Shown here piece by piece: positions 1 through 61,334 of a stretch of DNA of 64,000 nucleotides. Below the pieces are notes generated by a model. That model did no database searches, was not told where the DNA came from, and saw nothing but the letters and a program-made list of their open reading frames with translations. Within the stretch, counting starts at the first letter, position 1, and the number at the start of each line of letters is the position of its first letter. The DNA lies in contig NC_134029.1 in NCBI RefSeq assembly GCF_964204645.1, positions 13,480,850-13,544,849 of the forward strand, written 5' to 3'. The stretch comes from Tubulanus polymorphus (Eukaryota > Animalia > Nemertea). The position numbers were made by a program, and so were the translations under genes.

Positions 1-289
1 TTATGCATAGGCTACTGTGTGTGCACGCTTATCTTTATGCTTATTCAATTAGAATACCCATGTAGCTACCAAATAAGCACCGCTTCAGAGGATTTTAGAA
101 ATTTTCACTTCAATAACACTGTGTTCTATTTTTGGGCACTAGCTACTATTATGCACAATCAATCTATCACATTGATATACATATATGTGTCACTTCTTTT
201 GCATATAGTAGGGTCTTACAGTAACCAGTGTGCTCTCTCACACCTCCCTGTGATATTGGCCTGAGACTGACAAATAATCTTTTTTGTAG

Positions 290-2085
290 CGTATTGTTCT
301 CGTAGCAGACAGCATTTTAAAGTATGCTGGGCTAGATGGTGTAGGCTTATTTGAATGGACAAGGATCGTGTGCCCCGGAGGAACCATTGAAACATTGATG
401 GAAGGTAATTTCTCGGTTCAGTACTGATTTATATTGTTCATTTTCATTGGGTAACTGATTAGTTGTATATTACAGAATTGAAAAAGGTGAAGATGCTGAA
501 TGTGGAACAACTAATCGTCCATGTTGGAACAAATAATATGACGCGTGATGTCCCGCTTGAGATTGTTCTGCGAAGACACGTTGAATTAATTCGATTGTTG
601 CTCTATAAATGTACTGGGACCATCATTGTACCAGCTCTTTTTCCTCGATGTGATGAGTAAGTATCAAGAATAGATTTTTCTTGAAGTACTATATTTATGA
701 TCGATGTAATGATTTTTAAATTTCTTTCTTTTTTAAAGTTTCGATGCTGACACAAAGATATTTCATTACAATGAAATGCTGCACCGCGAATGCTTTACAC
801 TTGGTGTAAAGTTCGTTGATTTTCACTTCTCAAGAGATCTCCTTTCACCATAAGTAATCGTTTAATTTTAATAAGCCCAGTAGGTTATGTGCATTTTTTC
901 GCGATTTAAACTAACTTGTTTTTTTCTAAATTTTGTGATCTAGGACTGACTTATTACACCCCAGCCGTAAGGGAAATCAGTTCATAAATAACAGGATAAT
1001 GGAACTACTGCTATTGAAAAATGAAGATGAAATGTACGTAGAATTGCATTATTTTATCCAATTACCAGGTATGCAAACTACATAAATTTTATGATTGTAC
1101 TGGAAATAATGAATGATTCTTAATCAGGTGCCCTCAATACTTTCCATATGAGATTGAAAAGATGCAAAGAAGTAGAGCAGTCCATCGACGAAAGGTAATC
1201 ATTTAGCATTGATACCCTAGAAAATGAATGATTTGCAATTAGTTTTTATAACTTGAATACGAAACCACTTTATTCAAAATCCTTGCATTGAATTAATGAA
1301 TCATATTGATAGCTGATAGCAAAAAACAAATTGAAGGATGATCAAGCAAGAGCATGGGATGATTCAACAATAGTGGTAAAGTTGTTTTCCTAAGTGATTT
1401 GTACGTGATTTATCTTTATAAAGTTAGATATATTTTAACAGTTTTTTGTATCCTTCAATCCAGTATAGCAGTTTTGACGTTGCGCATCATACAAGGAAAC
1501 AATTCTGTTGTGTAGATCAAAGAGCCTTTTTCACATTCGACCAGGTACATATCATCTCAAGAACTTATGATTTAATATTAGTTTGGTCACTTTTATTTCA
1601 CAATTACCTAAAGGCTGTGCATGCACAAATCTGTCTTTTTTTTCCAGTACATGACTAAAATTGATGTGGCTGGTGTTGCTATTTGTTTAAAGCCTAAATT
1701 ATTTACTCCTTTTTATCAGACTAAGAACGTGAGTAATATGTTTCTCGAAATGAAATTATAGAAATTCATTGGTATTGGTATGATTTATGCTGTAAAGCTT
1801 TGTTTTCATATTCAGGGATGCTACAATAGAAGTTGTCACAATACTAAAAGATTTAACAGAAAAAGGAAGTCAGTGGAACATGTAAGTTTGATGCCCTTTC
1901 TGCGAGACGCGGGTTCATTTTTGTTATTTTTGCTTAGATGTTGAAGCAAAAACAGATTAATGTGCTCTCCCACATTAGGTTATTCATCCACAGACGGATC
2001 CTGCTGACTCGACATGTTTTTGCGGAGTTGAATTCACCAATTGGAAAGATCTTCTAGACCATGTTAGTTTAAACCATACTGAAAT
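290..2085 (+). pseudogene. 5' spliced part of a giant transposon gene: SGNH/GDSL hydrolase domain followed by a C2H2-type zinc finger (10 small exons)
   Basis: Phase-consistent exons 290-404, 476-656, 739-849, 944-1033, 1128-1194, 1313-1375, 1464-1544, 1648-1728, 1816-1881 and 1979-2085. They encode IVLVADSILKY, CPGG, VHVGTNN and DLLHP (SGNH blocks I/II/III/V), then CFCGVEFTNWKDLLDHVSLNH. The donor at 850 reads AT instead of GT. The start codon is not identified. Confidence 0.75.
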
Positions 2086-2246
2086 GTAAGTACAACATAA
2101 TTCAATTAATTTAGTACCTACAAATCTAAATGACTTAATGCAAATGACTCAGAGATACCCATGTTTTATGTTAGGCCTATATGGGTAATTTCATACTCTA
2201 TCTATTGATATGTCTAAAAAAAGTGAGTTGATAATGTGTATTTCAG

Positions 2247-3436
2247 GCGGACAATGGAGGAAGAAGGAAAGGACGCGGCTTGTGACAATTTCTCGGAAGG
2301 AACGATAGAGGAAGCAGAAAAGATGCAGGAAGATAGTTCGAAAGAAAGGATAGAAAGATTAAAGATGCAGGAAGATAGCTGGATGGAAAACAAAAAACAG
2401 CTAAGTATCACAGGTGGTGGAGGTATCGAACCAATCATAATTGATGATAGTGATGAGAATGATTCTGATGATGAACATGTATGTAGAAGAAATTTTAGTT
2501 ACAATCCAACAGAAATGTGCCTCAATGACTATCAGTTTTTGAAAATTCCACCTGTTATGCCATCAAAGGTCACGTCATTCAGAATTTGTGACATGTCTAA
2601 TTCATGTCATTTGGCTGATGATGCCCCCACTATGCCCCACAAAAATCAGTTGGAGGACATAAAAGCACAGATGCAGTCAAGGATTGTCCGTGACCCTTCC
2701 ATTAATATCCATGTGAGACTCGATACAGGCTGCTATTCTATTGATCAGATTAATAGGTTTCTTTTCTTACATTATGCTAAAACCAAACAACAAGATCTTT
2801 TTGCCATGAATCTTTGGGTAAATAGTAAGCCTTTAAGCCCCACTGATTCAGTCGATTGGGAACAGATTCAAGCATTTTCAAATATGCTCTTTTCCTTAAA
2901 ACCCTCTCAACAATTTCCAGTTGGTAATAATAATAGCGTATCTGTATCAGAACTTCAGACGATGACTAATCAAAAATGGTTTGAAGGATCTGTGTTAAAT
3001 GCTTTTGCATCTATGATAAATGAACAGTACTGTAATATTCATGCATTTATGATGCCACTTACATTTGATGCTAAGAAATATGTTTCAAATTTATATAAAA
3101 GATTCGGTCCTAATCCACTCATAAGTTGTGATAAACTAATTTTTTTCCTGCATGTTGGCACCCAAAACGATTTCGTATTTCTAAATTCTTATGGACATGT
3201 TGTTGCCAATCATTATGCACTAGCAGTTTTTTACCCAAAAAGTAACAAACTGTGTTATGCTGGTACACTAGCATGGGATTGTCCAAGGGAATTTAAAAAT
3301 CATTTAAGATCTGTTTTGAAAGGTTTGAATTGCCCTGATCCTGTTTATATCCACCTCCATGATCCTCATTTTGTTACTGAAAATTCAGTGCATGTATGTA
3401 GTAATAATTGTACTAGTTATTACCCACTCCAATCAT
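2247..3436 (+). pseudogene. Large exon encoding the N-terminal part of a Ulp1/SENP-like cysteine protease (interrupted by hAT)
   Basis: Acceptor ttcag at 2242-2246 is in phase with the previous exon. Motifs WFEGSVLNAF, NHYALAV, YAGTL (D>G) and YPLQS, which continues after the insertion as CSSVCG. Confidence 0.75.
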
Positions 3437-3984
3437 CAGGGCTTCTAGTGGTCCTATTTTCCTATTTTTTCCTATTTTTTAGTGCTTGTCCTATTTTGTC
3501 CTATTTTTATATGAAAAAGTCCTATTTGTCCTATTTTCTCTCATTTTCCAGCTCGTCGACGACTTTTTATCGACAAAAATGTTCTTTATATCTTTTCATA
3601 TGATGTGAAACACCATTTTGAGTGTTTGGTAGAACCTGCAGCATTCATGTTCGGTAAGTTCTGGCTATACAACTTCTTTTCTAATCTTTATATCCTAACA
3701 TGCCCAATGATTTTGTTCCAAATGTCACATGTTGCAGTGCAACTGGGCTTTGGCTATATGAGGGTTACAAACCAGAGGTGGTCGAGAAGTCAATATCTTT
3801 TCATCCAAACATTTCTTGATTATAATGCTAATTCTTTTGGGTCCGCCTCAGGTATACATTGCCAAGTATCACCACAGGGATGCTCTGTTGTGATCTAGCT
3901 GTGTGCAGTGACAATACTGAAAGCAATTATGGATTGCTTTGATTGTTGCCACTGCTTTAAATATTGTAACCTTAGACAGGAACA

Positions 3985-6411
3985 ATGCCGAACCGGACCA
4001 AGTTCTCGGATTCATGGTTGATTGAAGATGATAAACAAGGACACAAAATAAATGAATGGTGCCAACCAGTGAAAGGCGATATTTATAAGGCATATTGCTT
4101 TATATGTGAAAAAAAACTATCTATTGATAACCAGGGTTTAGGCCAACTAATACAACATGCCTCAAAAATGATGCATCAAAATAATAGCAAGATAAAACTG
4201 AACAAAAATCAGAAAAAACTTTTCCCGGTTGATAACACTTTAGAATGTGAAAGCTTAAGTGATAAGGTACTCAAGGCAGAAATAATATGGGCCATGTATG
4301 TGGCTGTAAATGACTACAGCTTCTTGTCATGCAACGATGTGTGTGAAACTTTCAGATGCATCTTCAAAGATCCAGCTGTTATAAATGAAATGACGTTGTC
4401 AAATGGGAAAGTGTCTTATACGATAAGCGATGGAATAAGAATACAGTTGACAAATGAGTTGATGAATGATATTCAGGATTGTACTACTGGATATTGTGTT
4501 TCATACGATGAAACACCAAACAAGCAGAAACTGAACCAGTTGGATATATATGTGGGGTATTTTTCACCTATATCCAAGAAAATTGAAACTCGATTCATTA
4601 AGACGATAATGATGGGTCACAAAACAGCTGAAATGGTACTCGGGGAGCTTCTCGGTGCCATGAATGACTTCAACATTGACTTATCGAAAATCATAGCTTT
4701 GTGTAGTGATGGCCCAAATGTAAATATATCAACTTGGCGTAAGATGTCAGCAAAAGTAATAGAAAAGGGCGGAAAGATGATAGATGTTGGATCATGCAGC
4801 CTCCATATGGTTCATAATGCGTTTAGAAAAGGCTTAGCATCTTTTGGCGCTGACATAGAAGAGTTTGCAGGAGATATACACACATTCTTCAAGTATGCCA
4901 CAAGGCGACAAGATTATGCAGTGTTCCAGCGAAAGGTTGGTGTAAAGGAAAATACATTCCTCAAACATGTTGATTCGCGTTGGTTGACACTAATTCCAGC
5001 ACTCTGTAGAATCAGCGAACAGTTTCCAGCTTTGAAGGCATATTTTGGTGATCTCAAAAAGAATACTAAGAATGATGATTCTCAATCTGCATGTTGTAAA
5101 CGAATACAGAAGGTACTACTCGACGTAACTGTTCCTGTGAAGATACAATTTATCCTAGATATCGGTAATATGTTTCAACGGTATGAAACTCTTTTCCAAA
5201 AGCGTGAACCGATGATTCACATTTTGTATACAGAAATGTGCGAGTTAATGCATAAAATATTGTTACGCTTTATTAAGCCTGATTCTCTCCCAGAAAAGAC
5301 TGGAGCAAAGTTGCTGGCTGCTGATATTGAAAAATGTGAGCAGCTCTCTGATGCTTGTTTAGTGGTTTGTAAGCTCACCAAGGATAAACTTGCTGTTCTA
5401 GATTCTTCGAAACAAAAACTGATAATAAAAGGCATTCGGGCATTCTATGTTAAAATAGCATCATATCTCCAACAGAAACTTCCCCTTGGAAATAATTTCC
5501 TACGAAACGTGAGGTGTTTACAACCGGAACGTCGGTCTGTTCATCGATTTGGGTTGTCAATTAAGGCTCTGGCGGTTGATCTGCCGACTATCATACCTGC
5601 ATCACAAGTCTCCACAGTTGTAGACGAATGGAAGATATATAGCAATGACTTGCTTGAAGATGATTGGTATAAAGACTCAGATGGAATAAGGTTACGAATT
5701 GATAAAGCATGGGAGAAAATATTTGTTCGCCAGACTGCTTCTGGTGATAGCAAATATACTGTCCTGCCCAAATTGGTAATGGCATGCCTTACTATATCTC
5801 ATGGTAGTGCTGAGGTTGAAAGAGGGTTCTCTGCCAATTCACGCACCATTACTGGTTCAAGGGCAAGTCTTGGAGTTGAAGCAATTACAGGTTTGAGAAT
5901 GATCAAGGACAAATTAAAGACCACTGGACAGAAGCCATGTGAAATGACATTATCACCTGAGCTACTATCATGCTGTAGACGGTCTTATAAAAACTATACA
6001 GAGAGACTTAAGAAAGAGAAAGAGATGGCTGAAAAGGCAAATAAGAAAGCTCTAGAAGATAGAAAAAGAGCCGAGGAGGCAAAGCAGGTAGAGACAGAAT
6101 ATGAAAATACAAGAAAAATCCTTGAAACTAGAAAATTAGAGTTGTTGGAAGTTGATCATTCATCCATGGAATCAATGACGACAAATAAACAACTACTCAT
6201 GGAAGGCAATGAAAAATTGGCCAAAGCTATCAAGGAAAAGGACCTTACACAAATCAAAGTTGCACAGTGCATGATTGAGGTGGCACACAATAAATTTGAT
6301 AAACTTGAGAAGGAAATGAAAGACAATCGACAGAGAATAGGTGAAATTGAGAAAAGGAAGAGAAAATTAAATGATGACCATGCTGAAACCATGAAAAAGC
6401 TAAAATGTTAA
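3985..6411 (+). CDS. hAT transposase, 808 aa, intact
   Basis: BED-like finger (AYCFICEK...H...H), SYDET, CSDG, CSLH (CxxH), SRW and SAEVERGFS dimerisation motif, plus a C-terminal coiled coil. Confidence 0.9.
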   Translation: MPNRTKFSDSWLIEDDKQGHKINEWCQPVKGDIYKAYCFICEKKLSIDNQGLGQLIQHASKMMHQNNSKIKLNKNQKKLFPVDNTLECESLSDKVLKAEIIWAMYVAVNDYSFLSCNDVCETFRCIFKDPAVINEMTLSNGKVSYTISDGIRIQLTNELMNDIQDCTTGYCVSYDETPNKQKLNQLDIYVGYFSPISKKIETRFIKTIMMGHKTAEMVLGELLGAMNDFNIDLSKIIALCSDGPNVNISTWRKMSAKVIEKGGKMIDVGSCSLHMVHNAFRKGLASFGADIEEFAGDIHTFFKYATRRQDYAVFQRKVGVKENTFLKHVDSRWLTLIPALCRISEQFPALKAYFGDLKKNTKNDDSQSACCKRIQKVLLDVTVPVKIQFILDIGNMFQRYETLFQKREPMIHILYTEMCELMHKILLRFIKPDSLPEKTGAKLLAADIEKCEQLSDACLVVCKLTKDKLAVLDSSKQKLIIKGIRAFYVKIASYLQQKLPLGNNFLRNVRCLQPERRSVHRFGLSIKALAVDLPTIIPASQVSTVVDEWKIYSNDLLEDDWYKDSDGIRLRIDKAWEKIFVRQTASGDSKYTVLPKLVMACLTISHGSAEVERGFSANSRTITGSRASLGVEAITGLRMIKDKLKTTGQKPCEMTLSPELLSCCRRSYKNYTERLKKEKEMAEKANKKALEDRKRAEEAKQVETEYENTRKILETRKLELLEVDHSSMESMTTNKQLLMEGNEKLAKAIKEKDLTQIKVAQCMIEVAHNKFDKLEKEMKDNRQRIGEIEKRKRKLNDDHAETMKKLKC

Positions 6412-6686
6412 GATATGAACGGTGTGTAGACACATTCATCGTTGTACTGTATAAGCCCTTGGTCATTGTTCTTTTATTAAAGTGTAATTTTGTCTTATAG
6501 TTAAGTGAAATTAATCATTTTGTACTATTTACCAGTTTCATGGTGTTTTAAAACAGTTTTGAAAAAACATAATGCACCATCAGTGTTTAGTTTGTTATGA
6601 TATAGTTTGTAGTGTTGCGAGTTAATAATGTTTATATAATGTTTATAAGTTCATGAAAAGTTTAGCATTATGTTTGTAAGTTTATA

Positions 6687-6917
6687 CAGTGTAACCTCGA
6701 TATAACGAACTCCATGGGACCTACGAGCAATCATATGATTGCTCGTAGATGGAGCAATCATATGATTGCTCGTAGATGGGACTGAAATCTATGTTCGCTA
6801 TTTAACCGATAGTTCGTTATATCAGGTGATAATTGTAATAAATCCACCAATCGGGACAAAATATATAGTTAACTGATAAATCGTTATATCAGGGTTCGTT
6901 ATAACGAGGTTCCACTG
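6687..6917. mobile_element. Tc1/mariner-pogo (Tigger-like) MITE inside the hAT 3' region
   Basis: 24-bp TIRs cagtgtaacctcgatataacgaac / gttcgttataacgaggttccactg (2 mismatches), with TA on both sides. Confidence 0.85.
6721..6775. repeat. Palindromic micro-insertion with 7-bp direct flanks
   Basis: Perfect 28-bp palindrome ctacgagcaatcatatgattgctcgtag plus a partial second copy. atgggac at 6714-6720 and 6776-6782. Confidence 0.75.
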
Positions 6918-7257
6918 TAGTTAAGATTTTAAATAGTAATACTCTGATACCTTTTGTATCTACCGGGTACCTCACTGCAATTTATTATGAGTTGCTGCTG
7001 TCATTCAGTTTATTGTAAAATGTTTTTTCGAAAAAAAGAAATGAAAAAATGTAATAAATAAACTTTATTTTCTAGTTTCAGATTACTGAAGTTCATTCAA
7101 AGACATCTGTGAATATGATGCTGCAGGTTGTATCCTCTCTTGATATATTAAAGTCCTATTTTCTGATGGATATCCTATATATTCTATGAAATTTTCCTAT
7201 TTCTGGACACTCTTCCTATTTTTTTTATGGACCAGATCACTGGAACCCCTGAATCAT

Positions 7258-10200
7258 GTTCATCTGTCTGTGGCCCTGCTACATTAATTGGTGCTTGCAT
7301 TGCAACCTATTATGAAAAGGATATTTCAAGTGTATTTTCATCTCCCAATGAATTATCTTATCTTAAGAACATTTCTAACTATTCTGATTTTGTTAGATTG
7401 ATATTGATTAATTGGCTTATGAAACATCTAATTGATATTACTCAACTCTTCTCAAAGTCATCTCAACCTACTGCTAATAGTACTACTTTCTCTAAGATAT
7501 CACGATTATCTCGCAGACAGAGACATAAACGATCAACTGAGTCAAATAATACACTAGCTAGTTCTGAATTAAAGATGTCAGACTCTTATATTGCCCCTAA
7601 AAAAAGCAAATCAGTCTTAACTACAGCCAAATCTAAATCTACACCAATTTTGAATAATGAATCAACACTTGAATCTACACCAATTTCGAATTATGAATCT
7701 GCAGCAATTTTGACTAATGAATCAACACCAATTTCGAATAGTGAATCTGCACCAATTTTGACTAATGAATCAACACCTGAATCAACACCAATTTCGAATA
7801 GTGAATCTGCACCAATTTTGACTAATGAATCTACACCAATTTCGAATAGTGAATCTGCACCAATTTTGACTATTAAATCTACACCTGAATCTACACCAAT
7901 TTCGAATAATGAATCTACACCTGAATCTACATCCTCAATTTTGAATCCTCAATCCTCATTAACTATAAATTCAGCTGAACCATTAACTTCCCATATTAAT
8001 GGTTCTAAAACTACTATCTCCCATCGCATCAGGAGAGGAAAGCATTATCTTGAAGTTGCTTTTCATTCAACTGGCAGTAAGACGAAGTATAAAAGTTTTC
8101 ATTGTACAGACCAAGGTACAAATGACCAGGTAGCCATTGACACTATCAAGAAATACCTCAACAACCAGAATCCACTTAGTGATGAATGGGTTGAAAATGG
8201 GGAAGTAATGACTGGTGCTGACACAAAATATTATTTCGATAGATTCACTTTTGATTTTACAAAAACAGTTCGTCTGCATAAGAATGTGCGGCCTTCATTT
8301 GTTGGTAACCAGACAACGATGAAAGCTTCCTTAACATTAAAAAAGAATTGGCAAACCCATAGATTAGATAATAAATTTGAATTTATTGAGCCAATTGTTG
8401 AGGATACTTCTCAATTTGTGGCTGCAGAAATGCTCATAAAATGTTCGTCAAAGTCTTCAGTTTGTAAATCATCATGTGGATATTATCTTTCAAAGATGAA
8501 TATGTCCAGTAACATCACTAATTGTCCCTCATGTCAAATTGACGTTGTTTTAAATGATAAACAATGTATTCATTGCTCCATTACCATGTCTAACTAATGG
8601 AGGAAAAATGCTGATGGTGAAACACTTTGTTCCAACTGTTACAACTATAAGCTGAAGAATAAACGTGATCGTCCTGTGAAGTTAAGGCAGCAGTTTGAGC
8701 CAAAAAAATTAATTCACCCTCATTTTATGTGTTATTGGGCAACGAAACTTGTATTATTTAGTACTGATTTATCCAAGTGGAGAATCTTCAGCAAACCACT
8801 TAATGGTCAATATCATGACAATATTCCTTTACAAATTAAAAAGCGACCTAATTTATCTACTAGAGATAGATGGGATGAAAATAGAGTCATGATGAAAGCC
8901 ACAGCAATGAAGGTTCTTTCTGCCACCAATGCTCACAATAACCTTCATGTATCAAATGTAAATGATGGCGCCGGTCATGACCATACCCTAGATCAAATTT
9001 CAAATAGATTGAAATATATTGATAAATCTTCGATAAAATTACATATGAAATCTCAAGACGAAATACCTATTCTAAGTTCTGATTGGAGAAATACTGAAAA
9101 ATTATTAGAGGGTAACTATGAATATGTCCTTTTATTTCAACGAGGGGATGCCACACTCAAACGTAATTATCACATTATTCTCTCTGATCCTCGTTCTCTG
9201 GAACATTTATCCAACTTTGGACAATCTGTCATTGGTATTGACGTGAAACATGATTTCAATTCGTGGAAATTCAAAACTTCATTTGTAACTTTTGCAGACA
9301 ACAAAAATGAAGGACGTATTGCTGCTGCATCAATTAGTAGTGATGAAGGGGGGCTACTCATGCAACTACCATCCAGTTAGTTCTAGCCAATACACCATGT
9401 AAAGACGAAAAATGTAATCATCCATCTGAATTCTATATATTTAATGATGGCAATGGTTTTTTCAGAATCAAGCCATGTTCATCAACATCTAGATTATGTC
9501 CTTTTGTACAACATGATAAAGATGCAAGTCTAAAGCAAGGAGCATCTGACAATAATCTTAAATCAGTACTATGTAATTTTCATGACCTGCAGTGTATTCG
9601 TCGCTTCATGAATGAAAATCAAGAACTTCGCTTATTTTGCAAGCCTCTAGAAACTGGTTTCAAATGCATTATGAGATCATGGGATGCTTCCTCTAGAACT
9701 GATATAGCCAATTCATTTATTAGTTTTATTGAGAATGATATTTCTTTAGACCTTATGTCGCAAGATACAAAACATTATTTATTGATTACCTAAAGAAGAA
9801 TTGGTTTAATTCCCAAATTTGGTCTGATGCATTCAATGCTGAATCAATTTATCAGTCAGACCAATCTAACAGAAATAACCCTTTGCTATTAACTGATAAT
9901 ATTACTGAGCGCAAATTCAAACAAATAGATGATGTCTACTTAAGTGGACACCTAAATAAACTGATATCATCTTTTGTACGATTACTGTTTGAAAATGTTT
10001 TTAATGATGAGATCAAAGCGACAAATATGAACAATCTCCAATTTAAGCAAATTGACCAACGAGTTAAGAATATACGTCACCTTGAAAAGATAGAAAAGTG
10101 TTGCAAAAGAGCCTTTGATTTATTACAGAATAATGAGATTTTAGAATATGATGAAGAAACTAATTGGTTTGTTGTGAAGAGTTCTTCACGAAAGAACTTA

Positions 10201-11802
10201 AATAGGTTAGAAGATAATGATAATTTTTTCAATGGTGATACTCACTATACATTCAATCAGCTTGATGTTTTAGAAGAAAGATTCCCCGATAAAGTATCAA
10301 TATCCGAGGAACATTCATATGACATTTCAAAAAAATGCCGAAGGTACATAGGAAATTTAGATTCAATATCCAGTCGTATCTTATTCAATTACGTTATTAC
10401 AATCGTTCCTGAAAATTGTCTTTCATACGTAGATGGTAATTGCCATTTAATCAATTTGAAACTAGGTATATGTACTTGTGAAGCTTTTATAATGATTGGA
10501 CAACCATATTTTTGCAAACATCTTTTTGCCTGTTTTGCCCAAAAAAACAATATAACCACAACGAAGGCTTTAATTGATGCATATAAATTCCACATTGTGG
10601 AGCCTCTGCCAACTTACAATTTTACTCGACAAAATAGTTCTGTTTCATCTACCCTCATTGATAAGTTAAAAGATCATTCCCACATTGCTAGCTCGAATGA
10701 TATCAATGCTGCTCGGAAAGGGCACATTCTAAGTATTTTACATAATGAAAGCCACTGTGGAATTAAGTTAATAAGCGGACGACCTGCCAAACGACAACCT
10801 CACAATATGGCTCATAGGCGTGCTGAGGGTCCAATCAAGGACAATCAGGTTGCCATAAACCTTCCTGAACTTGAAGTGATAGACCCTTACTGCCCTAAGG
10901 TTACAATGCCTAAAGATGCTGAGAATGCAAGACACGGAGGGCGAAAGATAATTAGACCTGCTAACAGAGGTGTATCCTTTTCTGCTATGGTTGAAAATGC
11001 TGCTATCAAACTAGGTAAAAAAGCTAAAATATCAGAAATTGAAACCATAGACTCCACTGATCCAGATCCTGGCAATGATATCGAATTTTCAGCAGATATT
11101 TTAAGTCAGAATAAATCATCCTTACCGAAAAAATCAAAAGATACCAAACCAAAAGATATTAAGTCAATACCAGTTGTTAAAAATGACTCGAAGTCTGTTT
11201 TATTTGAAAAAAGTATTGTCTGTTCCTTTTGTATTAAAGACAAAATAAATCCTCCATATCTTTGTTCATGTCGCAGGGAACTAGATAGGCACATATCCAC
11301 TTCTCATTCATCTTTGAAACCTATCTCATGTGCTATTTGTTGGGCAGATGGGGTTATTAATTCATATGCAAGTGAAACATTCCTTCAAAAGCACATTCGT
11401 ATTGAACATAATCATCATAAGAAAAAATCTATTGTAATCGATTATAATAATAGAGATGATTATCTCAACAGTTCTCCTATTACAGAAATCAATAATTCCA
11501 ATTCTGAAAAAGAATTAGAAATTCTTATAGATCAACCTGGAAATGCAGGCCTCCAAAACCTAGCAAAATTGAAACTAGATAATCTTTTGTCATCAAAAGT
11601 TGAAAAAACCCCTTCTCAGTTAGTTGCTGAAACCTGCCCTGTCTGCCACAAAAACTGCAATGCTAATCCTAAGAAAAAGTCCACATTCTCAATTGAATGT
11701 GATAATTGCCATAGATGGTATCATTGGAAATGTGCTCCAATCAATGAGGCTCCTCCTGAACATATCAGGTGGTTTTGTTTTCATTGTGACCCGATTTCCT
11801 AA
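7258..11802 (+). pseudogene. Continuation of the giant gene: Ulp1 catalytic Cys, S/T/P repeats, GATA zinc finger, MULE/Mutator DDE transposase, SWIM, 2 C2H2 fingers, PHD finger
   Basis: CIHC-x17-CSNC..YKLKNKRDRP (GATA; in-frame TAA at 8595), IGIDVKHDFN, HDKD, LCNFH, DYLKKNW, TDNITERKF (MULE D/D/CxxH/E), CTC..CKH (SWIM), CPVC..IECDNCHRWYHWKC..WFCFHC (PHD). Frameshifts near 9350 and 9785. Confidence 0.8.
7642..7945 (+). repeat. Coding tandem repeat (ESTPISNSESAPILTN units)
   Basis: Imperfect 36/48-bp units gaatc(a/t)acaccaatttcgaat..gaatctgcaccaattttgact. Confidence 0.85.
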
Positions 11803-12229
11803 ATAGTTTGTATTGAATATTATTGATCGGGTTTCGAATCAATCCCTGACGTTAGAAATATTTTTATTTCCCATGGTGACCGTAGAAGCCTATAATGACC
11901 GTCACTTAGTCACCTATATATTTACTCGATTATATATAAGGTTAAGAAGCGATGTATATGCACTGGTGTTTATAGTGCTCTATTTCAGGTTTATAGTGCT
12001 CTATTTCAGTGCTCTATTTCAGGAATTTTGGTGGCCTATCTCAGATGAAAGCCTTGACTATTTACTACAAAATAACACGAACTTGTAATGCATGGAAACA
12101 AACGGCAAATGAGCTATTCCGTTATATCTATCGCGATGCCCCGATGCCGATGGCCGCCCGAAGATTGATGTCTTGTTGGTTGGATTTTACTAGGGCTCAG
12201 TATTGTCCCTTGCGGTAAATGAGCGGTTA

Positions 12230-12438
12230 ATTGGTCGGTAATTAGATGGTAATTAAGTGGTAAATTGTCTATTTGATATCGTCGGTTGTTTAGCGGTTAA
12301 ATAACCGCTAAACAACCTACGATATCAAACAATATCCGGCTAATTACCGACGTATAGGATTAACGACGATTTTCCGACGACGAACTTCCGACAGAAATGA
12401 GATAGGGGCAAAATCGTCGGATTTTATTACCATGGTAG
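12230..12438. repeat. Putative transposon terminal region: 28-bp-arm hairpin and ccgacg subterminal repeats
   Basis: Arms 12272-12299 and 12302-12329 (1 mismatch). Several ccgac/gtcgg motifs ending in attttattaccatggtag. Confidence 0.5.
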
Positions 12439-13580
12439 CAACAATACACGTAGTTTATATAATGACGTTCAAATTCCATTTCTAATCACGATTTTCGACT
12501 ACCTCCACATTTCTTAACCCCGAGATATTTCAAATTAAAAAATTCCACATGTTCAGATATTTTTTATATAAGGTTTATGAATGATTGATATTTTGAAATG
12601 TTAGTATTATAGCATTTTTATTTTATAGCAAGTGTGCATTGATTCATTGCATATTTCATTGCGATAATATCTCAAACAACAATTGTCCAGTACATCGTTA
12701 CCTCAGGCTAGTAGCATATTCACACAATACAGATGTCGGATTGTGGTTTTTGAGTATAACAGATTCCATTGAAATTGGTTTAAGGTGTATGTGTAACTGG
12801 GGTAGCTCGTTTGCGCTGTGATTTTCATTACACACAGTCAATGGAGTTGATACCCTGGGGAAAACGAAATCGACAAGAAAGAATATGGTCTTGCTGACAT
12901 GGTTCTACCAGGGTAGTGTGATGACACATCACACTTCCCTGGTTCTACTAAGTACTTTTGTGCCTATGTTTCGTAGAATAATTGGAACACTGAACTTATT
13001 ACTTTTGCTAGAGCAAATAACATGTTTTGCCGACTGTGACGAACTGCTGCAGACATCAACAAAACAAATCAGAATTATAATTCGACAGAGACGTGTTCAC
13101 ATTTAGGTTGTTAAATAAATGGAGCTGACGGTGATGGGTCACAGTTGTATTTCCCACAAATGGCAATACATTTCAAACCGACCAATAACGTTTCATGCGG
13201 TCCTCGTTGAGAGCTATGCAAACCACTCTTAGTACGGTATACAAAGTTTGTTTGAAATCAAAAGAGAATAAATTTTTAAAAGATAAAGAATTGCCTTCAT
13301 CTTATGTTCAGCTTTACAGTATGTTCCCTGCATACAAAAATACTAACCCTACATTCAAATGATTAATCCAAGATTCTACTACATATTTACTACAGTTGCA
13401 TTGAGATCTCACTGACATCACACATAGTGGTTGCTAAGACGTCTCAATTGTCTAGCTCGGTTAAGGTCGAGGTTACAGCTAACAAACACAGTTACGCAAT
13501 GGTGACGGACGTCTGGATTCGATACGTAATTAAACTGATATGCTAATCAGCCACGTTCAGTGGCCCCACTGAAGTTCATT

Positions 13581-13781
13581 ACTTGTTTGTTCCTTGTTCC
13601 TTATTCAGATTTCGTCTTTACCGGTTCAATTTTCGTTACTTATTGAGAATTCGTCTCCCAATAAGGAACAAGTAACATGTTACATGTTCCTTCTTCCTTC
13701 TTCCTTATTCAGATTTTCGTCTTTACCGGTTCAGATTTTCTTGTTACTTATTGAGAATTCATCTCCCAATAAGGAACAAGT
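13581..13781. repeat. Duplicated ~80-bp unit with aataaggaacaag / ttgttccttatt inverted ends (non-autonomous element-like)
   Basis: ttccttattcagattt..ttaccggttca..ttacttattgagaattc.tctcccaataaggaacaagt occurs twice. Confidence 0.55.
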
Positions 13782-15659
13782 CAGATTTTCTCGCTGTTAC
13801 TTATTCGCCAGGTGGCGCTGGTATACACTATGCCGTAGTCCAGACATTTTACGTAACTATGTCTACTCTGCTGATAAACAAACTCGACCTCGACCTTGAC
13901 AACAAATCGCCAGGTGATGGCGCGAGCCAATCCAGACGTCTAAACACGATTGCGTATGCGACCGCGAGAGCGGTCAGCCGTAGCTTCACTTCAGGATAGA
14001 ACGATAACCACACTCAAACGTGGTGAACGGATAATAAAAATTTTTTAGATTCAATAAATAAATTCTTGTTTTTACGTATATATATATATATATATATATA
14101 AGCTTCAGTTACACACATGTTTTAATACTATTCGATCAGATTGCTCTCAATACTTTTAATACGAATACGAATATTCATTACACTCCAATCACTTCTATGG
14201 TATATGGAGGAGGGAAAACAGCATTCATTTAGGAGGTAAATGAAAACGTATCTTAAAACATAACAAACATTATTTACGGAACATACTATTTACATATTAC
14301 CCATTGGATTCATATACATCTAAAGGTGTCCCCCTTTCGAGTTTAGAACATTTATATTCCGTGGTATTATACTGGTACCTTCTGAAACATGGCCATGGCC
14401 GCGACTGCACATCAATACCCGGCATTGCGATTTTCCGTGTTACACTTATATATAAAACATGTACAACATAAGGTAAACGGAGATCGGGAAAACACGAACA
14501 ATGAACGCTTTTACGGTTCGCAGCGCTTTTACGGCCGCAAAATGTGATCTACCGATCTCAGAAAAATTATGTGACCCAAGCCTCAATAACCCTCATCCCC
14601 CCTAAATCTCTACATATTTCCACTGCTCTCTGGAATGATGAGATAAAAGAATAGAAATCGACATCAGTAGCACCAAAGCTAACCGTACCATTTTTTCTCA
14701 CTACTTGAAATAAACTATGCGCAAAGCCAGAGAAAAATTTGCGATTTAGAGAGAGATAAATACAATGCAACACACATCATCGATTCGATACAGCAGTTGC
14801 AGGCCTATTTGAATACTTGTAGTAAAGCGCGGTCGATTGATGCGCGCGGGCAGTATCTTATCTTCAAGCACAAAACTATCGTATTATTTCCAATAATTAA
14901 TTGTTACATGTTTACACTCTTTGCGTAAAAGTAACGACACATCTGAATTTCTTCCGGAAAGCAAAGTAAAATTAGGTGACAATTGGAACTATTTAATTTC
15001 GCGCATTGAAACATACATACGCTTTAAGCGGCGTGATCAGTACGCACAATAGGGAGCATTTATTGATTGCTAGAAAAGCGATAAACTTGTCGTCTTGTAT
15101 TGCTATAATACTTAACACTGCATTTTCACATTTGTGATCATACGTACTAATTTCCCCTGGAGCGGTGCCCCGGCAACAGTGCGTCAGCAACAGGTGGGAT
15201 TCTCACGCGTATCTCATTGAGCGGTGATGAGTGATAACAGATATCAATTTCTTCACACGGTCAGCTTTTCCGATATCAAAATAGTAGGTCAGCATCATTG
15301 CTTGGTGACGTAGCTACGATAGTCCCAGTTGATCGTGTCATCACGTCTGGCGCAACCTCGGAAATCCTCTCGATGACAGACACTGTCCAATAACCATCGG
15401 ATCGCCTCTCTGGCGCCATACTTGCGTGGGTTTGATTGCAGCCCACCGAAACTCTTGCTTCAGCGTCTCAAACGTTTTTTCTTTTGGCCACATGGCCAAT
15501 GAATTGTACTTTTCGTGATTGATAAACGCAATGCTTATTTCGCAAAGGAATGATTTCTTATAAATGCGTCGTTCATTTACTGTTCACTTTGTTTACACAG
15601 TTCACCAAACTCACTGTTGCTTTTTTCACGGTATGTCGGTGATAAACCTAAGCAGACAT

Positions 15660-16108
15660 TAATATTAAAACCAAATTCTGACATATCATTGAAAGATAGA
15701 ATAAAATTATTATTTAAGTTTGAAGGAATAACAATTCTTTCAATTGTAACAGCTGTAACTATGTTATTTACAACAATTGGTTTAGCAATATCAAATGCTT
15801 TAAAATCTACTCCTACTCCCACTCCCAATAAACCAGATAAACCTCCAAGCAATAATTCTATACAAGATAAAGTTAAAGATGGTTTAAAGAAATTAGCAAA
15901 ATATTTATGGGAACTATCAAAGAAATCTGCTGCAGCATTGCCAGGAGTTATTGCATCAATTGTTGGTTTTATATTGAAATCTGCAGGAAACATTATTAAC
16001 TTTGCTGCTGAACATATTATTTTATTTTTAATTACAGTTGTAAGTGCTATTTGGTTTAGTAAATATGATATCAAAAAATATCAAGTAAACCATGATATCA
16101 AAAAATAA
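15660..16108 (+). pseudogene. 3' part of Polinton coiled-coil/membrane protein (5' truncated)
   Basis: Hydrophobic helices plus amphipathic LKKLAKYLWELSKKSAAALPG. Homologs at 41350-42700 (-) and 47951-48352 (+). The 5' end of the tracked ORF is unrelated DNA. Confidence 0.7.
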
Positions 16109-34823: not shown

Positions 34824-36228
34824 AACAAGGCAATTCGTACTACGTATCTATGTCCCCCGCGATAGCCACTAGGGAATGAATGACCCCTGAAGTCACTGAT
34901 CTTTGGAATAGAAAAATGATGAGTGTATCCAGGGATAACCATACTATGAAATATCATTTTCCTGTTATGAATGGTTATTTAAGAATGAGTTTACACGGTT
35001 TTAGGCAAAAGACGTCTACCAACCTTGACCTTTGACCCTAGAACTCCAAAATCACTAATGCACATCCTCTCCCCAGGGGTAATCATACTATGAAATAGCA
35101 TTGTTCTGTTATCAATGGTTTTTCTTGAATCGTGTTTACAAGGTTTCATATGAATGATATCTAGTGACCTTGCCCTTTTTCCCCAAAATCAATTGGGCAC
35201 ATCCTCTCCCTAGGGGTAATCATGCGATGTAACATCATTATATTGCTATCAACAGTTCTTTCTGAATCACATTCACGACACAGGGTTTCACATCAATGAC
35301 CTGAAGTGACCTTGACCTTTGATCCTTGGAGCCCAGAATCAATAGGGCACATCCTCTCCATAAGGTAATCATAATACGTAATATCATGGTCCTGCTATCA
35401 ACGGTTCTTCTTGAATGACGTTCACAAGGTTTCACATGAATGACTTGTAGTGACCCTGACCTTTGGTCCTTGGACCCCAAAATCAATAGTGCACAGCATC
35501 TCACTAGGGGTAATGATACTACGTAATATCATGGTCCTGCTATCGACGGTTCTTCTTGAATCACGTTCACAAGGTTTTACATGAATGACCTGTAGTGACC
35601 TTGACCTTTGATCCTTGGACCCCAGAATCAATAGGGCACATCCTTTCCCTAGGGGTAATCATACTACGTAATATCATGGTCCTGCTATCAACGGTTCTTC
35701 TTGAATGACGTTCACAAGGTTTCACATAAATGACCTGTAGTGACCTTGACCTTTGATCCTTGGACCCCAAAATCAATAGGGCACATCCTCTCCCTAGGGG
35801 TAATCATACTACGTAATAACATCGTCCTGCTATAGACGGTTCTTCTTGAATCACGTTCACAAGGTTTTACATGAATGACCTGTAGTGACCTTGACCTTTG
35901 GTCCTTGGACCCCAAAATCAATAGGGCACATCCTCTCCCTAGGGGTAATCATACTACGTAATATCATGGTCCTGCTAACAACGGTTCTTCTTGAATGACG
36001 TTCACAAGGTTTTACATGAATGACCAATAGTGACGTTGACCTTTGGTCCTTGGACCCCAAAATCAATAGGGCTCATCCTCTCCCTAGGGGTAATTATACT
36101 GTGTTATATCATAGTCCTGCAATCTACGGTTCTTCTTGAATCGCGTTCACAAGCTCATGCGGACGGACGGCCAGACCGGTGGATACCAAGTCCCCAGCTC
36201 GCGGCCTACGTCGCGCGGGGGACAATAA
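34824..36228. mobile_element. Helentron-associated non-autonomous element (HINE/DINE-like) with an internal 145-bp satellite
   Basis: Subterminal IR tgtcccccgcg (34851) / cgcgggggaca (36214), about 8 units of 145 bp with tgaccttgacctttg, a ggacggacgg microsatellite and a 3' hairpin. Confidence 0.75.
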
Positions 36229-36319
36229 GCTTCGAATAATTGGAAAATGACGTTTTCAGGCCAGAGGACAAGAGGACGACACATCACTCATCACCACAAG
36301 TAATTTTCCCCCCTGATAA

Positions 36320-57576: not shown

Positions 57577-60201
57577 GCTTTTTCAACCGAATGTCAGTGA
57601 GTAAACATATTCCGTAATTTATCGATCGCGTAACTATGTCGACGTCTAACGATAATCCGAGTGCGAGTGCTGTTACTAGTACTACTACGTACTTGCCGGA
57701 CTCTTTTGCCGATACAAAGACGGCTCGTTCTACCGCCAAACGTAAGGTTTCTTGTCTCGTAAAAGATGGAAGAGCTCTTTTAGATAACGGTGACGGCATT
57801 CTGCACACTGAATTTAAATCGCACGCAGAGAAAATCAGACAAATCTGAAATGCAGACGATGCTATCGAAAAGGCCGAACAAACGATAGGCAATGAAAATG
57901 AAACGTACTACGATGAGGTCAGGGACAAAATCCTACCGACTATGTTTGAGTTAATACGCCAAGGTGAAAAGCAGACCTATTCCTAAACCGCCTCTTGCTC
58001 AAAGATTGACAACGCCCAACCCCCATAGCGAACCAACTTTAATGACTCGAATGCCCAAACTGAGGTTCCCTACATTCTCCGGAGACAAACGAGATTACAG
58101 AAGATTTAAGAAACAGTTTCTTCACTTCTCCCAACATTTAGATGAAACGGAGATTTTCTATCATCTCATAGAGTCCATGGAGAGGTCTAAAGAAAAAAAC
58201 AAAGTTAAAGTCTGTGTAAACTCAACCAAGGCATGGGAGATCTTAGATTAGGCATTTGACGACGAGACGTGTTACATTGAGACGTTGATATCTGACATCG
58301 AGAATTTGGAGTCCTATGAAATTAGAGGGAGAGTGAATTTGCGGAACATGGAGAAATTTGTCGAACGTCTTCAGAACTTCTCGACCCAAATCGGGTCCCT
58401 TGATGTTGAGGGAGGACTCAATAGCAAAGTGATTCTGGCCCAAGTCCGACGTAAGCTACCTGAATAGCACAGAATCGCTTATCTGAAACACATCCGTGAC
58501 TATGAAGCACAAGAGTCGATTTCGGGGTTGGTAGATTGGTTGAACTCTCATCTCATCTTATTGCAGAAAGCTCAAAGCTTGACTGTCAACTCTACAGAAA
58601 GTCACTCAAGGGTCCCTAAATTTCATAAATCATCGAAATACTCGACGATGTCCCCTGGTGGTAGCTGGAGAAATCCAGACAATCATAAAAGAGAAATTCA
58701 CACTGTACACAAAGAAAGTAGAGACCAGTTTCCTTTAAAGTGTCCCTTACACCCGCGAAGCTCCAACCACTTCAATAAAGGCCTGTCATAAATTCCGAAC
58801 TCTCACGCAAGGGGAGAAACTCGACATCTCGAAGGCAAATAATATTTGTCAACGTTGTCGACACAACAACTGTGTAGCAGGGAAACTTCCATACAGTTAT
58901 GAAGACTACCAGTTTATATCACCCTTGTAGTGACTGTGAACTACAAGGACGAACAGCGAACAGCAAACAGCGACGAGACATACGACCCAATCCGAATCCA
59001 ACGAATACATACAGCGAACGAAACCAGCGACGAACTCAAGAGACAACAAGGCAGTGTCTACAGTTACAAGGTTTGGTACCGTCTAACATTTATTGTGTTC
59101 AAAGATTACAGGAAAACGATCGGAGTATTGCATTTCTATGATTGGTCGAGAGACGTCAGTACTTCATGGTTCATGGCATGGTTCATGGCGAGTACACTTC
59201 AATGACTTTGTATTCCAGATAATCTGCTCGTCGTGACAACCCTGTCAAATACCTACGTGTGGAGTTGACACCCACTATGCTTCAATTTGCCCTCGGGTTT
59301 ACGAAACTGATGGTTATCGACATTTCGAAAAAGGTTCACAACAATATACTTGGATCAACAAAAAACTTGACGTTTCAGCTGGTGAATTTAAACCAAAAGA
59401 GAAGAATTCTTATCAGATCTGTGGTGCATCTCCGGCCACATCAGACGAGACTCGCATAATAGCTGCATTACCTACCGTCATGGCGTATGTTTGCTGCGGA
59501 AGAAAGAAAACTCTCGTTCGAGTTCTCCTAGACACGGGAAGCCAAGTGTCACTCATACGAGAAGGAATCCTGCCAAAATCAAACGATGATCAAATGCAAA
59601 ACTTCGATCTCACCACTGTTGGAGGGAATGTTACTACCCGTCGGCTTCGTGTAGCGGAGTGTGTGCTCCAAAGCTTAGATGGTACCTTCTCTCGTCCGAT
59701 TCACCGAAATGAAGAAGCCATGTGGAGACCTTCCAGTCATTACTAACACTCAAATTCAACCTTACCCTCATCTTTCTGATATTGAAGTAATCGAACCTTC
59801 CTTTGAAACCATCGACGTTCTCCTAGGAGTCGAAAACAGTGACTTACTAGTTCCTCACGAGCACATTGTTGGTCCTTAAGAAGATGATCCAGTCGCCTCA
59901 CGGTCTATTCTTGGCTGGTATGTACAGGGCGGTCGCTGCAGAGATGAACTTCACACAACTGTTACCGTAAACGCTGTTCAAGTGTCTGTTAACAGTGACC
60001 TAGAAGACTTCCTGGGTATCGAACGTATGGGTATTGAGCCAAAATAATGTAAATGCAAAGCTAACGAATCTGGCAAGATGGCCAGTGAGTGCATGCGTCA
60101 AAGTATTACTAAGTTAAAAGACGGTACCTACCAAATCAGTCTACCTTGGATGAAATCGCCGGATGGTCTACCGAATAATTACGATTACGCAGCTAAAAGA
60201 T

Positions 60202-61334
60202 CGGTGTTGTCATATCGCGGAAAGACGGAATCGCGGAATTTTCCAAAAACGCGGAATTTCTTCATTTTTACTATAAATAGTAAACGGGTTTTCCCACGGG
60301 GATACCCACTGTCGGACAGGGCACCGGACCCAGGTTTTCAACACCGGGAATTAGTATTTGATAATTTATTATATCGCCAGTCAACAACTTAACGATACTG
60401 TTCCAAATAATGGAGAACCTAGGCAATACGCGCTTTGCGAATTCAGTGATACAGAGTATCGCTTCATTAACTGAAGGAATACAAATCGATGGTGCGTAAA
60501 CGTAGGATTTGTGATGACACCATGAGCCATTCTCAAGGACTCACTTCCGAGTTAAGATTTGACTCTGGTCTCTGGATTTAAAACATTGGAAATGAATTGA
60601 TTCTAAGTAACTCAGAGTTAACTCACAACTGTGGAACTGGATCGATGTCAGACGAAAATAAATAGACATTATGTATATTTCATTCTGGCTTAGGATTGTT
60701 CATGCGTGTTGTGTGTCTACATTGTTGTTATAAGCGAAGAATGTGGTTTATCTTTTAGAATTAAATGATATGAAAGATTATAAAATGGTTTCGTTTTTTT
60801 TAATGTTTACTTTGTGACTGCTATAACATATATGTTCCTATGCTGATTATTTGGATCAAAAGAATCTTATTGGTACCGGTACTGGACGGCCGTAAAATTG
60901 TAATAATTTCAAAGGAATTTGAACCGGTACTTGTTTGGTCGTAGGATTTCATGTTTGCAACCATCTACAACTACGGTCCGACACCGCGAACGTGCTCAAT
61001 ATTTATCTGATAATATTCGTTCCTGAAGTTCTCAAAAAGTCGATGAACTTCGATAATCGAAGTTTGCCTAGTAGAAATAGACATTAGGTGCCTGGTCTCT
61101 TTCACCTCACTTGATTCTGACTTCTTCTACAGGTGGCAGCCAGTCAACGGTATCGTAATATAATAATTCCATATAAAATTGCCTGAAAATAATGGGATTC
61201 GAACCTAAGTCGTTGCATCGATCAGTCCGGTGCCCTGTCCGACAGTGGGTATCCCCGTGGGAAAACCCGTTTACTATTTAAAGTAAAAATGAAGAAATTC
61301 CGCGTTTTTGGAAAATTCCGCGATTCCGTCTTTC
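60202..61334. mobile_element. Non-autonomous TIR DNA element inside BEL pol
   Basis: 110-bp inverted repeats 60220-60329 and 61225-61334 (1 mismatch). The outermost right tip and TSD are missing. Confidence 0.8.

Follow-up and report, generated by a model that had tools for sequence, protein, structure and literature searches.

Can one spliced gene join an esterase and a SUMO-type protease to a cut-and-paste transposase, and, if so, is it a mobile element in its own right? The question arises from a stretch of 64,000 nucleotides of the ribbon worm Tubulanus polymorphus (contig NC_134029.1, positions 13,480,850 to 13,544,849, forward strand; hereafter the window). A preliminary description of this DNA had proposed, at positions 290 to 11802, a Mutator-like gene fusing an SGNH hydrolase, an Ulp1 protease, a GATA finger, a transposase, a SWIM finger and a PHD finger. 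We conclude, with a probability of about 0.82, that the element is an autonomous Mutator-like (MULE) cut-and-paste transposon and that the window holds a disabled copy of a transcribed, spliced and multi-copy gene. This conclusion is supported by splicing, by a single reading frame, by about ten near-identical copies, by the catalytic residues of the sister copies and by a domain order found across phyla. The one protein of such an element would bind the ends of the element, move it by cut and paste through a D-D-E core, and loosen host control with its built-in SUMO-type protease.

Gene structure and reading frame

The region 290-11802 is an eleven-exon gene with a single protein frame, in agreement with the preliminary description except for some corrections (Table 1). 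Ten small exons had been proposed to splice in phase into the large exon at 2247. They are all open and in phase, the frame can be rebuilt through them, and a rough shuffle estimate puts the chance of all ten being open at about 4e-11. The junction 2085^2247, singled out earlier for checking, is bridged in the contigs of run X3, which skip 10 of 10 introns, and one of these contigs spans exon 10, the protease exon and the empty site of a hAT-like insertion. We take X3 to be RNA because its contigs skip introns; the run carries no RNA label. An exon-4 donor at 1069 was ruled out, since the reads splice at 1033. The proposed frame of about 2,200 residues was recovered: read from the ATG at 398 across the hAT-like insertion, the window aligns with the RefSeq protein P0006 (2,196 aa) with 14 differences over approximately 2,196 residues (7 in the first 1,380, 2 in the next 141 and 5 in the last 677).

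The limits given earlier, 290 and 11802, had to be abandoned for the element as a whole, which reaches further on both sides. Neither of its ends is in the window, because reads pass base 1 (X5 depth is 30-101 across 1-3348, and contigs extend 53-367 nt beyond base 1) and other copies depart at 11992, where the X1 and X3 contigs diverge into a continuation that is absent from the window. Without the hAT-like insertion the element is at least 9.2 kb long, a sum that includes the contig overhangs.

The window copy is dead, as a result of the hAT-like insertion, a stop codon, two frameshifts, the loss of a catalytic Asp in the protease and a mutated splice donor. The stop and the roughly two frameshifts that had been proposed were located at 8595 and near 9350 and 9770, the one near 9350 being common to the window copy and model P0010. 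The splicing described earlier is real in other copies, but the window copy cannot splice in this way because its exon-3 donor reads AT at 850; the position is G (giving GT) in 59 of 59 X5 reads and in the X1 and X2 contigs. The codon of the Ulp1 catalytic Asp encodes Gly in the window (3262-3264). The site of the hAT-like insertion is empty in the contigs of X1, X2 and X3 and in 21 X5 reads.

The inserted hAT-like element itself looks intact, with weak BED and dimerisation matches and a target duplication of 6 bp, not 8 bp, and further copies of it are present in the reads. It contains, at 6685-6919, a miniature inverted-repeat transposable element of 235 bp, whose inverted ends measure 26 bp and which encloses a 24-bp palindrome.

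Copies in the Tubulanus polymorphus genome

The gene is young and multi-copy, with dispersed and near-identical copies. The C-terminal open reading frame (ORF) matches a RefSeq protein of T. polymorphus at 99% identity, and the RefSeq cluster of this match has 11 members from 10 loci that are 97-100% identical. Copies in RefSeq lie on at least seven contigs. Intact models of 2,196 aa are found at three loci (7 accessions, differing at 3 residues), an isoform of 1,995 aa starting in exon 8 accounts for 3 accessions, and there are seven partial models, every one of which opens with the SGNH exons. The X5 depth of 30-101, relative to an expected single-copy depth of 5-6x, suggests about 5-17 copies, where the expected depth is estimated from 1,934 Mb of reads and a genome size of 313-358 Mb (PMC8468679).

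Transposase core and C-terminal fingers

The proposed MULE-type DDE core stands by its motifs, but not by a direct Pfam MULE match on protein P0003. Residues D1343, E1378, D1435, C1454/H1457 and E1566 show no variation among the 7 proteins aligned. Judged by the order of the motifs, they follow the residue pattern of the MULE superfamily, in which an Asp comes after strand 1, a Glu after strand 3, an Asp after strand 4 and a His (of CxxH) after strand 5, with the last Glu on the helix behind the helical insert. Among 25 aligned cores (rows chosen by us), D-D-CxxH-E is intact in 16, substituted in 5 and incomplete in 4, and a Cys-x4-Cys-x-His...Cys insert between core strands 3 and 4 is present in all of them. 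MULE clusters ranked first for the core in Atlas (0.93-0.95), and the family profile reaches P0110, a protein with Pfam MULE above the cut-off. Babu et al. associate MULE transposases with an Asp/Glu/Asp/His/Glu core pattern, a WRKY-GCM1 domain and C-terminal SWIM and, optionally, PHD fingers (PMC1702500), and the features they name are all present here by motif position.

The SWIM and PHD fingers of the preliminary description were both recovered. The CxC...CxH motif of the former is invariant in 7 of 7 aligned proteins and lies C-terminal to the core, with a Pfam SWIM match on the relative P0033 (E 0.004). The latter is closest, among solved structures, to the PHD finger of TAF3 (profile E 1e-7). 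The aromatic methyl-lysine cage of H3K4me3-reading PHD fingers is partly kept in it: by comparison with the cage positions of TAF3, the Trp before the His ligand is retained and the other positions are Glu and Ser. From what is known of these families, the D-D-CxxH-E core would excise and insert the element, and the SWIM and PHD fingers would contact chromatin.

Zisupton is also a DNA transposase bearing Ulp1, and Zisupton/KDZ elements have a KDZ core, SAP, F-box and an N-terminal SWIM finger. We rejected this assignment: no such Pfam family was found on P0003 or on six relatives at E<=5, and the SWIM finger here is C-terminal to the core. A search of NCBIfam gave no matches.

DNA-binding region

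Between the protease and the core lie an AP2-like repeat and a WRKY-GCM1-like domain with a nested GATA finger. This nesting, the AP2-like repeats and the Cys/His insert of the core go beyond the preliminary description. The GATA finger had been described as C-x2-C-x17-C-x2-C, and this is borne out by its Trp and basic tail and by both profile (GATA1, E 8e-12; GATA3, E 5e-17) and fold matches (model against GATA4, VIA Z 7.9, root-mean-square deviation (rmsd) 1.8 over 48 aligned residues). It is above the Pfam cut-off in P0043 and P0046. It sits between the first Cys and the His-x2-Cys of a four-stranded domain in which the pattern Cys...His-x2-Cys...Trp...His is conserved, and the four-strand model weakly matches AFT2 on both sides of the GATA insert (Z 4.7, rmsd 3.7, 94 aligned). 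This layout agrees with that of MULE transposases whose WRKY-GCM1 domain carries an insert (PMC1702500).

Three strands and a helix are predicted for the AP2-like repeats, with a predicted local distance difference test (pLDDT) of 70-85 in a limpet model, and they weakly match the AP2 tandem of Plasmodium SIP2 (Foldseek E 0.015; VIA Z 5.0, rmsd 9.3 over two repeats). A helical stretch 3' of the WRKY-GCM1-like domain matches the Tc3 helix-turn-helix at Z 5.0. Atlas scores for the DNA-binding part were under 0.8. By analogy with the families they resemble, the WRKY-GCM1/GATA, AP2-like and helical modules would bind the element ends or target DNA.

SGNH esterase exons

The first exons encode an esterase-like domain: Lipase_GDSL_2 of Pfam matches P0005 above the cut-off (E 1.4e-9), and the closest solved structures in a PDB profile search are the OSK domain of Oskar (E 0.002) and the ORF1 esterase of ZfL2-1 (E 0.013). 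These exons go with the rest of the gene, as had been proposed, being present in the models at 10 of 10 RefSeq loci. SGNH blocks I, II, III and V, with their Ser, Gly, Asn and His, all fall within one frame. As far as the frame goes, the earlier claim of four catalytic blocks is correct. The first in-frame ATG, however, is at 398, and both the catalytic Ser (311-313) and block II are encoded upstream of it, within 290-397. All 7 full-length accessions start at this Met and thus after the Ser, and 3 others start in exon 8. As annotated, the main forms are therefore predicted to be without the catalytic Ser.

Could the esterase nevertheless be active and integral to the transposase, with a minor 5' splice form supplying the Ser, and help the element to reach chromatin or other cells by deacylation or membrane binding? 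All four residues lie in an open frame behind ten introns, and a half-domain without strand 1 would be expected to fold poorly. In addition, two partial-copy models, P0005 and P0011, reach the Ser in frame through other 5' exons, and a catalytic, Ser-containing protein may thus be made as a minor isoform. Of the two residues typical of transposon esterases, a His and Ser228 of ZfL2-1 (PMC3905857), the His is kept, but the counterpart of Ser228 is Pro (numbering inferred from spacing). The annotated starts also speak against an active enzyme, as does a spliced upstream exon in X3, which joins at 290 and places a TAG in frame just before exon 1. The same exon holds the start of P0011, which apparently reaches the Ser via a later acceptor, and P0005 does so through a different 5' sequence. 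This is the single spliced upstream exon visible in X3, with 13 further loose contig ends outside that view. Finally, none of 172 non-Tubulanus proteins matched the SGNH domain, although this was a weak test (a single-sequence profile, with many relatives being single-exon or partial predictions) that does not show absence. Taken together, we find an active esterase possible but doubtful.

The domain, which the preliminary description had made part of the architecture, moves with the Tubulanus element, but the same weak test on 172 proteins lends little support to SGNH as a trait of the wider family. A weak search for longer proteins bearing this SGNH domain also found none among 323 candidates. 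Residues 1-90 of P0015/P0016, which by eye resembled a decayed second half of the domain, found no support as a remnant in the tests: 469 and 262 of 500 shuffles reached the score, hhalign gave 0.2%, and a PDB profile search gave nothing in favour. The SGNH exons probably derive from an esterase like those in ORF1 of long interspersed nuclear elements (LINEs), captured in this lineage alone and now moving with the element. The esterase is probably accessory, a passenger or decaying, because the main isoforms are likely produced without the catalytic Ser or without SGNH altogether.

Ulp1/SENP protease domain

The Ulp1-like domain noted earlier has both fold and profile matches to the Ulp1/SENP family. 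Yeast Ulp1 is matched by profile at E 2e-7, and the domain as modelled from its limpet relative P0018 (46 sequences, pLDDT 73) matches SENP1 (VIA Z 18.3, rmsd 3.2, 213 aligned) and Ulp1 (Foldseek E 3.7e-7). The catalytic residues H607, D624, Q680 and C686 are present in the intact Tubulanus copies, and the His-Asp-Gln-Cys set is complete in 13 of 20 chosen rows.

Animal transposon silencing depends on SUMO. The Ulp1 domain would strip SUMO either from the transposase itself or from proteins of silencing or repair, and so loosen host control; we give this role about even odds. As to the substrate, a NEDD8 protease also matches the fold, at Z 14.9. Bao et al. have proposed a role in repair for the Ulp1-type protease (PMC2836005). 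Alternatively, the protease may cut the element's own polyprotein instead of host SUMO conjugates, an idea raised for OTU-MULEs (PMC1702500) and consistent with the low-complexity linkers between modules and with the fold shared with viral CE-clan polyprotein proteases (Z 8-10). However, the best fold matches, SENP1, Ulp1, SENP3 and SENP5 (Z 16-18), are far above these viral enzymes, and the catalytic Cys of the protease is kept in P0074, P0079 and P0080, relatives that have no core. We consider polyprotein processing improbable.

Relatives in other animals

A word-based search found 7 relatives, and a profile search of 1.84 billion representatives found 42 at E<=1e-30 and 138 at E<=1e-10. Host names cover 10 of 150 listed relatives and include the limpet Patella caerulea (two clusters, 13 members), a mantis shrimp, two crabs, two shrimps, a lobster and a sea spider (a fragment). 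Local profiles on all 183 stored proteins gave a common order: Ulp1, one to seven short repeats, the DNA-binding domain with GATA, the core, SWIM, two C2H2-like fingers and PHD. Ulp1 is upstream in 20 of the 22 non-Tubulanus proteins that hold both the DNA-binding domain and the core (9 limpet and 5 crab-cluster near-duplicates being among the 22), and a GATA-type motif is present in 41 of 47 non-Tubulanus proteins. GATA together with Ulp1 is a conserved trait of the family and not a one-off, and the protease-GATA-transposase core recurs in limpets and crustaceans.

In a tree of 42 cores, built after dropping 12 near-duplicates and with rows other than the known MULE groups, a supported clade of 18 rows contains Tubulanus, limpet and crustacean proteins. 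Its inner order is open and known MULE groups are not among the rows, and we therefore make no claim on horizontal transfer or on a group name. A scan of metagenomes gave 2 loci in 260 stretches, fragmented and at 26% identity. One relative, P0035, has two tandem Ulp1-like domains.

Some relatives have lost parts of the transposase. The proteins of Scylla and Portunus are 94% identical, with the second Asp replaced by Glu, CxxH lost and the protease Cys replaced by Tyr, and 10 stored proteins, among which are 4 lobster isoforms, have the protease, the repeats, the DNA-binding domain and the C2H2 pair without the core. Domestication is likely within the family, because the crab relatives combine such identity between genera with lost residues and the decapod relatives are core-less. 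The crustacean and other proteins with a dead or missing core, in which up to seven AP2-like repeats were detected (P0032, P0175-P0178, P0048, P0074, P0096 and P0080), look like host genes derived from the family and are candidate domesticated DNA-binding proteins.

Is the element itself a transposon?

Several observations weigh against our reading. Pfam MULE has no match on P0003 at E<=5, and it matches 5 of 39 long relatives at E<=0.05, one of them above the cut-off; Pfam Peptidase_C48 likewise has no match on P0003. For judging the RNase H fold with helical insert that marks MULEs, the model of the core is too poor (pLDDT 46, from 5 sequences), and its Foldseek matches are non-significant (Hermes, E 0.07; ISCth4, E 0.24). 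The AP2 and WRKY-GCM1 fold matches reach just Z 5.0 and 4.7. The RNA evidence consists of contigs of one run, with no single full-length mRNA displayed. No terminus, terminal inverted repeat or target-site duplication of the element was seen in an inverted-repeat search of 1-16000 or at contig ends; MULEs duplicate 8-11 bp of target and may have terminal inverted repeats or none. A wide VIA search with the core model returned helical pairs alone, the best at Z 6.9 to unrelated helices.

The unseen ends, the ten introns and the crab and decapod relatives with lost residues or no core would also suit a unit carried as cargo by a larger mobile element or by segmental duplications, or a MULE that has been domesticated into a host gene. 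Introns are nevertheless known in Ginger1 transposases (PMC2836005), and both in Tubulanus and in limpets the copies are dispersed, near-identical (99.6-99.9% in 4 of 5 limpet pairs compared), often truncated and with all catalytic residues kept, which makes this explanation quite improbable. That the SGNH exons are a separate adjoining gene, fused by a modelling artefact, is largely refuted and very hard to sustain: the SGNH-less isoform of 1,995 aa, the short SGNH-only models and the lack of a contig covering the molecule end to end would suit it, but all ten junctions are seen in phase, an X3 contig links exon 10 to the protease exon and continues past the hAT site, and the models at all ten loci contain these exons.

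Comparison with known elements

As in the MULE transposases of Babu et al. (PMC1702500), the element has a WRKY-GCM1-like domain with an insert between Cys residues, the core residue pattern and C-terminal SWIM/PHD fingers, and the family includes stand-alone derivatives without a core. The insert differs, being a GATA finger here, a Zn ribbon in GCM1 and a basic insert in the FAR1/AFT types. The AP2-like repeats, the N-terminal Ulp1, the Cys/His insert of the core and SGNH are not described for MULEs in the parts of that paper cited here. Bao et al. (2010) reported Ulp1 on DNA transposases, namely Ginger1 and Mutator elements of hydra, lancelet and plants (PMC2836005). The likeness extends to PHD, sometimes present, and to introns in the transposase gene, but Ginger1 has a C-terminal protease and a core that resembles Gypsy integrases, whereas here the protease is N-terminal to a MULE-type core. 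The 50 MULE groups of Dupeyron et al. (2019) and Rehavkus likewise have one ORF, SWIM, PHD (Rehavkus) and invertebrate hosts; compared by description, their main text mentions no GATA, protease or intron, and its Table 1 no GATA, Ulp1, AP2 or esterase (PMC6446971).

The same class of SGNH domain occurs in the ORF1 proteins of ZfL2-1, CR1 and RTEX (PMC3905857), in texim (PMC4021074) and in Terminons (PMC6431247). Of these, texim was captured by Helitrons, is intron-rich and, as here, is carried by a DNA transposon. Unlike the texim, LINE and Terminon cases as presented there, the SGNH exons here are spliced in frame onto a cut-and-paste transposase, with the catalytic Ser outside the main annotated frame.

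Already in print are Ulp1, SWIM and PHD on DDE transposases and intron-bearing transposase genes, as well as SGNH esterases in LINEs, in Terminons and beside Helitrons (PMC2836005, PMC1702500, PMC6446971, PMC3905857, PMC6431247, PMC4021074, PMC13343379). The GATA insert, the AP2-like repeats, the N-terminal Ulp1 and the in-frame SGNH were not found in the searched literature, whose scope left out Repbase and supplements, and no title or abstract among the literature matches on transposase with SGNH or GATA dealt with an SGNH- or GATA-MULE fusion.

Features and surroundings

Table 1. Features of the element and its insertion, in window coordinates.
Feature	Positions	Strand	Evidence or remark
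Visible part of MULE-like element	1..11992	+	5' end left of window; copy cut off at about 11992
Exon 1: SGNH block I (Ser codon 311-313) and block II	290..404	+	First in-frame ATG 398
Exon 2	476-656	+	
Exon 3	739-849	+	Donor at 850 is AT in window copy
Exon 4	944-1033	+	
Exons 2-4 together: SGNH block III Asn (532), D-x-x-H (948, 957)	476..1033	+	Pfam Lipase_GDSL_2, PDB matches, contig joints
Exon 5	1128-1194	+	
Exon 6	1313-1375	+	
Exon 7	1464-1544	+	
Exon 8	1648-1728	+	Met at 1651 starts the SGNH-less 1,995-aa RefSeq isoform
Exon 9	1816-1881	+	
Exon 10	1979-2085	+	
Exons 5-10 together: linker and atypical C2H2 finger (2015-2077)	1128..2085	+	
Start of exon 11 (large exon): acidic linker and most of Ulp1/SENP domain (His 3211, Asp>Gly 3262, Gln 3430)	2247..3436	+	
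hAT-like DNA transposon, inserted; 811-aa ORF 3976-6411	3437..7251	+	12/14 terminal bases inverted; 6-bp duplication AATCAT
End of Ulp1 domain, catalytic Cys (7269)	7258..7448	+	Alignment
Ser/Thr/Pro-rich minisatellite linker, 12/24-nt units	7636..7959	+	
AP2-like three-strand-one-helix domain, 1 copy (1-7 detected in relatives)	8001..8189	+	Repeat alignment; weak fold match
WRKY-GCM1-like domain (Cys 8442, His 8721, Cys 8730, His 8814) with inserted Cys-pair module and GATA	8420..8830	+	
GATA finger, nested in WRKY-GCM1-like domain	8565-8639	+	Stop 8595 in window copy
MULE-type catalytic core: Asp 9240, Cys/His insert 9398-9478, Asp 9515, CxxH 9572-9583, Glu 9907	9110..9950	+	
SWIM finger	10471..10521	+	Motif CxC...CxH
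Pair of C2H2-like fingers	11221..11409	+	Alignment
PHD finger and stop codon	11635..11802	+	Pfam PHD E 6e-5

Downstream of the point where the element is cut off, tandem duplications followed by a high-copy repeat occupy 11968-12360. A near-perfect palindrome with 28-bp arms at 12272-12329 was rejected as the element terminus, as it lies past 11992, where the element is cut off. At 13996-14037 begins a short repeat of very high copy number, for which the reads contain hundreds of distinct flanks. The region 15554-57100 holds at least three decayed, A+T-rich and partly inverted polinton/adintovirus-like copies, with a capsid-like ORF, an A32-type ATPase, an rve integrase and a homing-endonuclease-like piece. 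A tandem array of about nine copies of a 145-bp unit lies at 34929-36243, and remnants of a long terminal repeat retrotransposon (aspartic protease and integrase pieces) lie at 59237-62560, with a 115-bp inverted pair at 60215-61339.

Significance

The element may read chromatin and counteract silencing. A more extensive proposal is that of an undescribed marine-invertebrate Mutator lineage combining AP2-like repeats, WRKY-GCM1 and nested GATA with a working SUMO protease, anti-silencing and, in the ribbon worm, an active esterase, and having seeded domesticated proteins in crabs, shrimps and lobsters; taken as a whole we regard it as unlikely. Because Pfam misses the family, the annotations of many genomes probably lack it. 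With the GATA finger nested in a WRKY-GCM1-like domain, one more fold of transcription factors is tied to transposases. In the crustacean derivatives, what looks like domestication can be traced. Ulp1 on transposases has been known since at least 2010, with no tested role in the papers cited here (PMC2836005). The intact, transcribed and near-identical copies in T. polymorphus provide a concrete enzyme and element with which to ask whether a transposon de-SUMOylates the proteins of its host.

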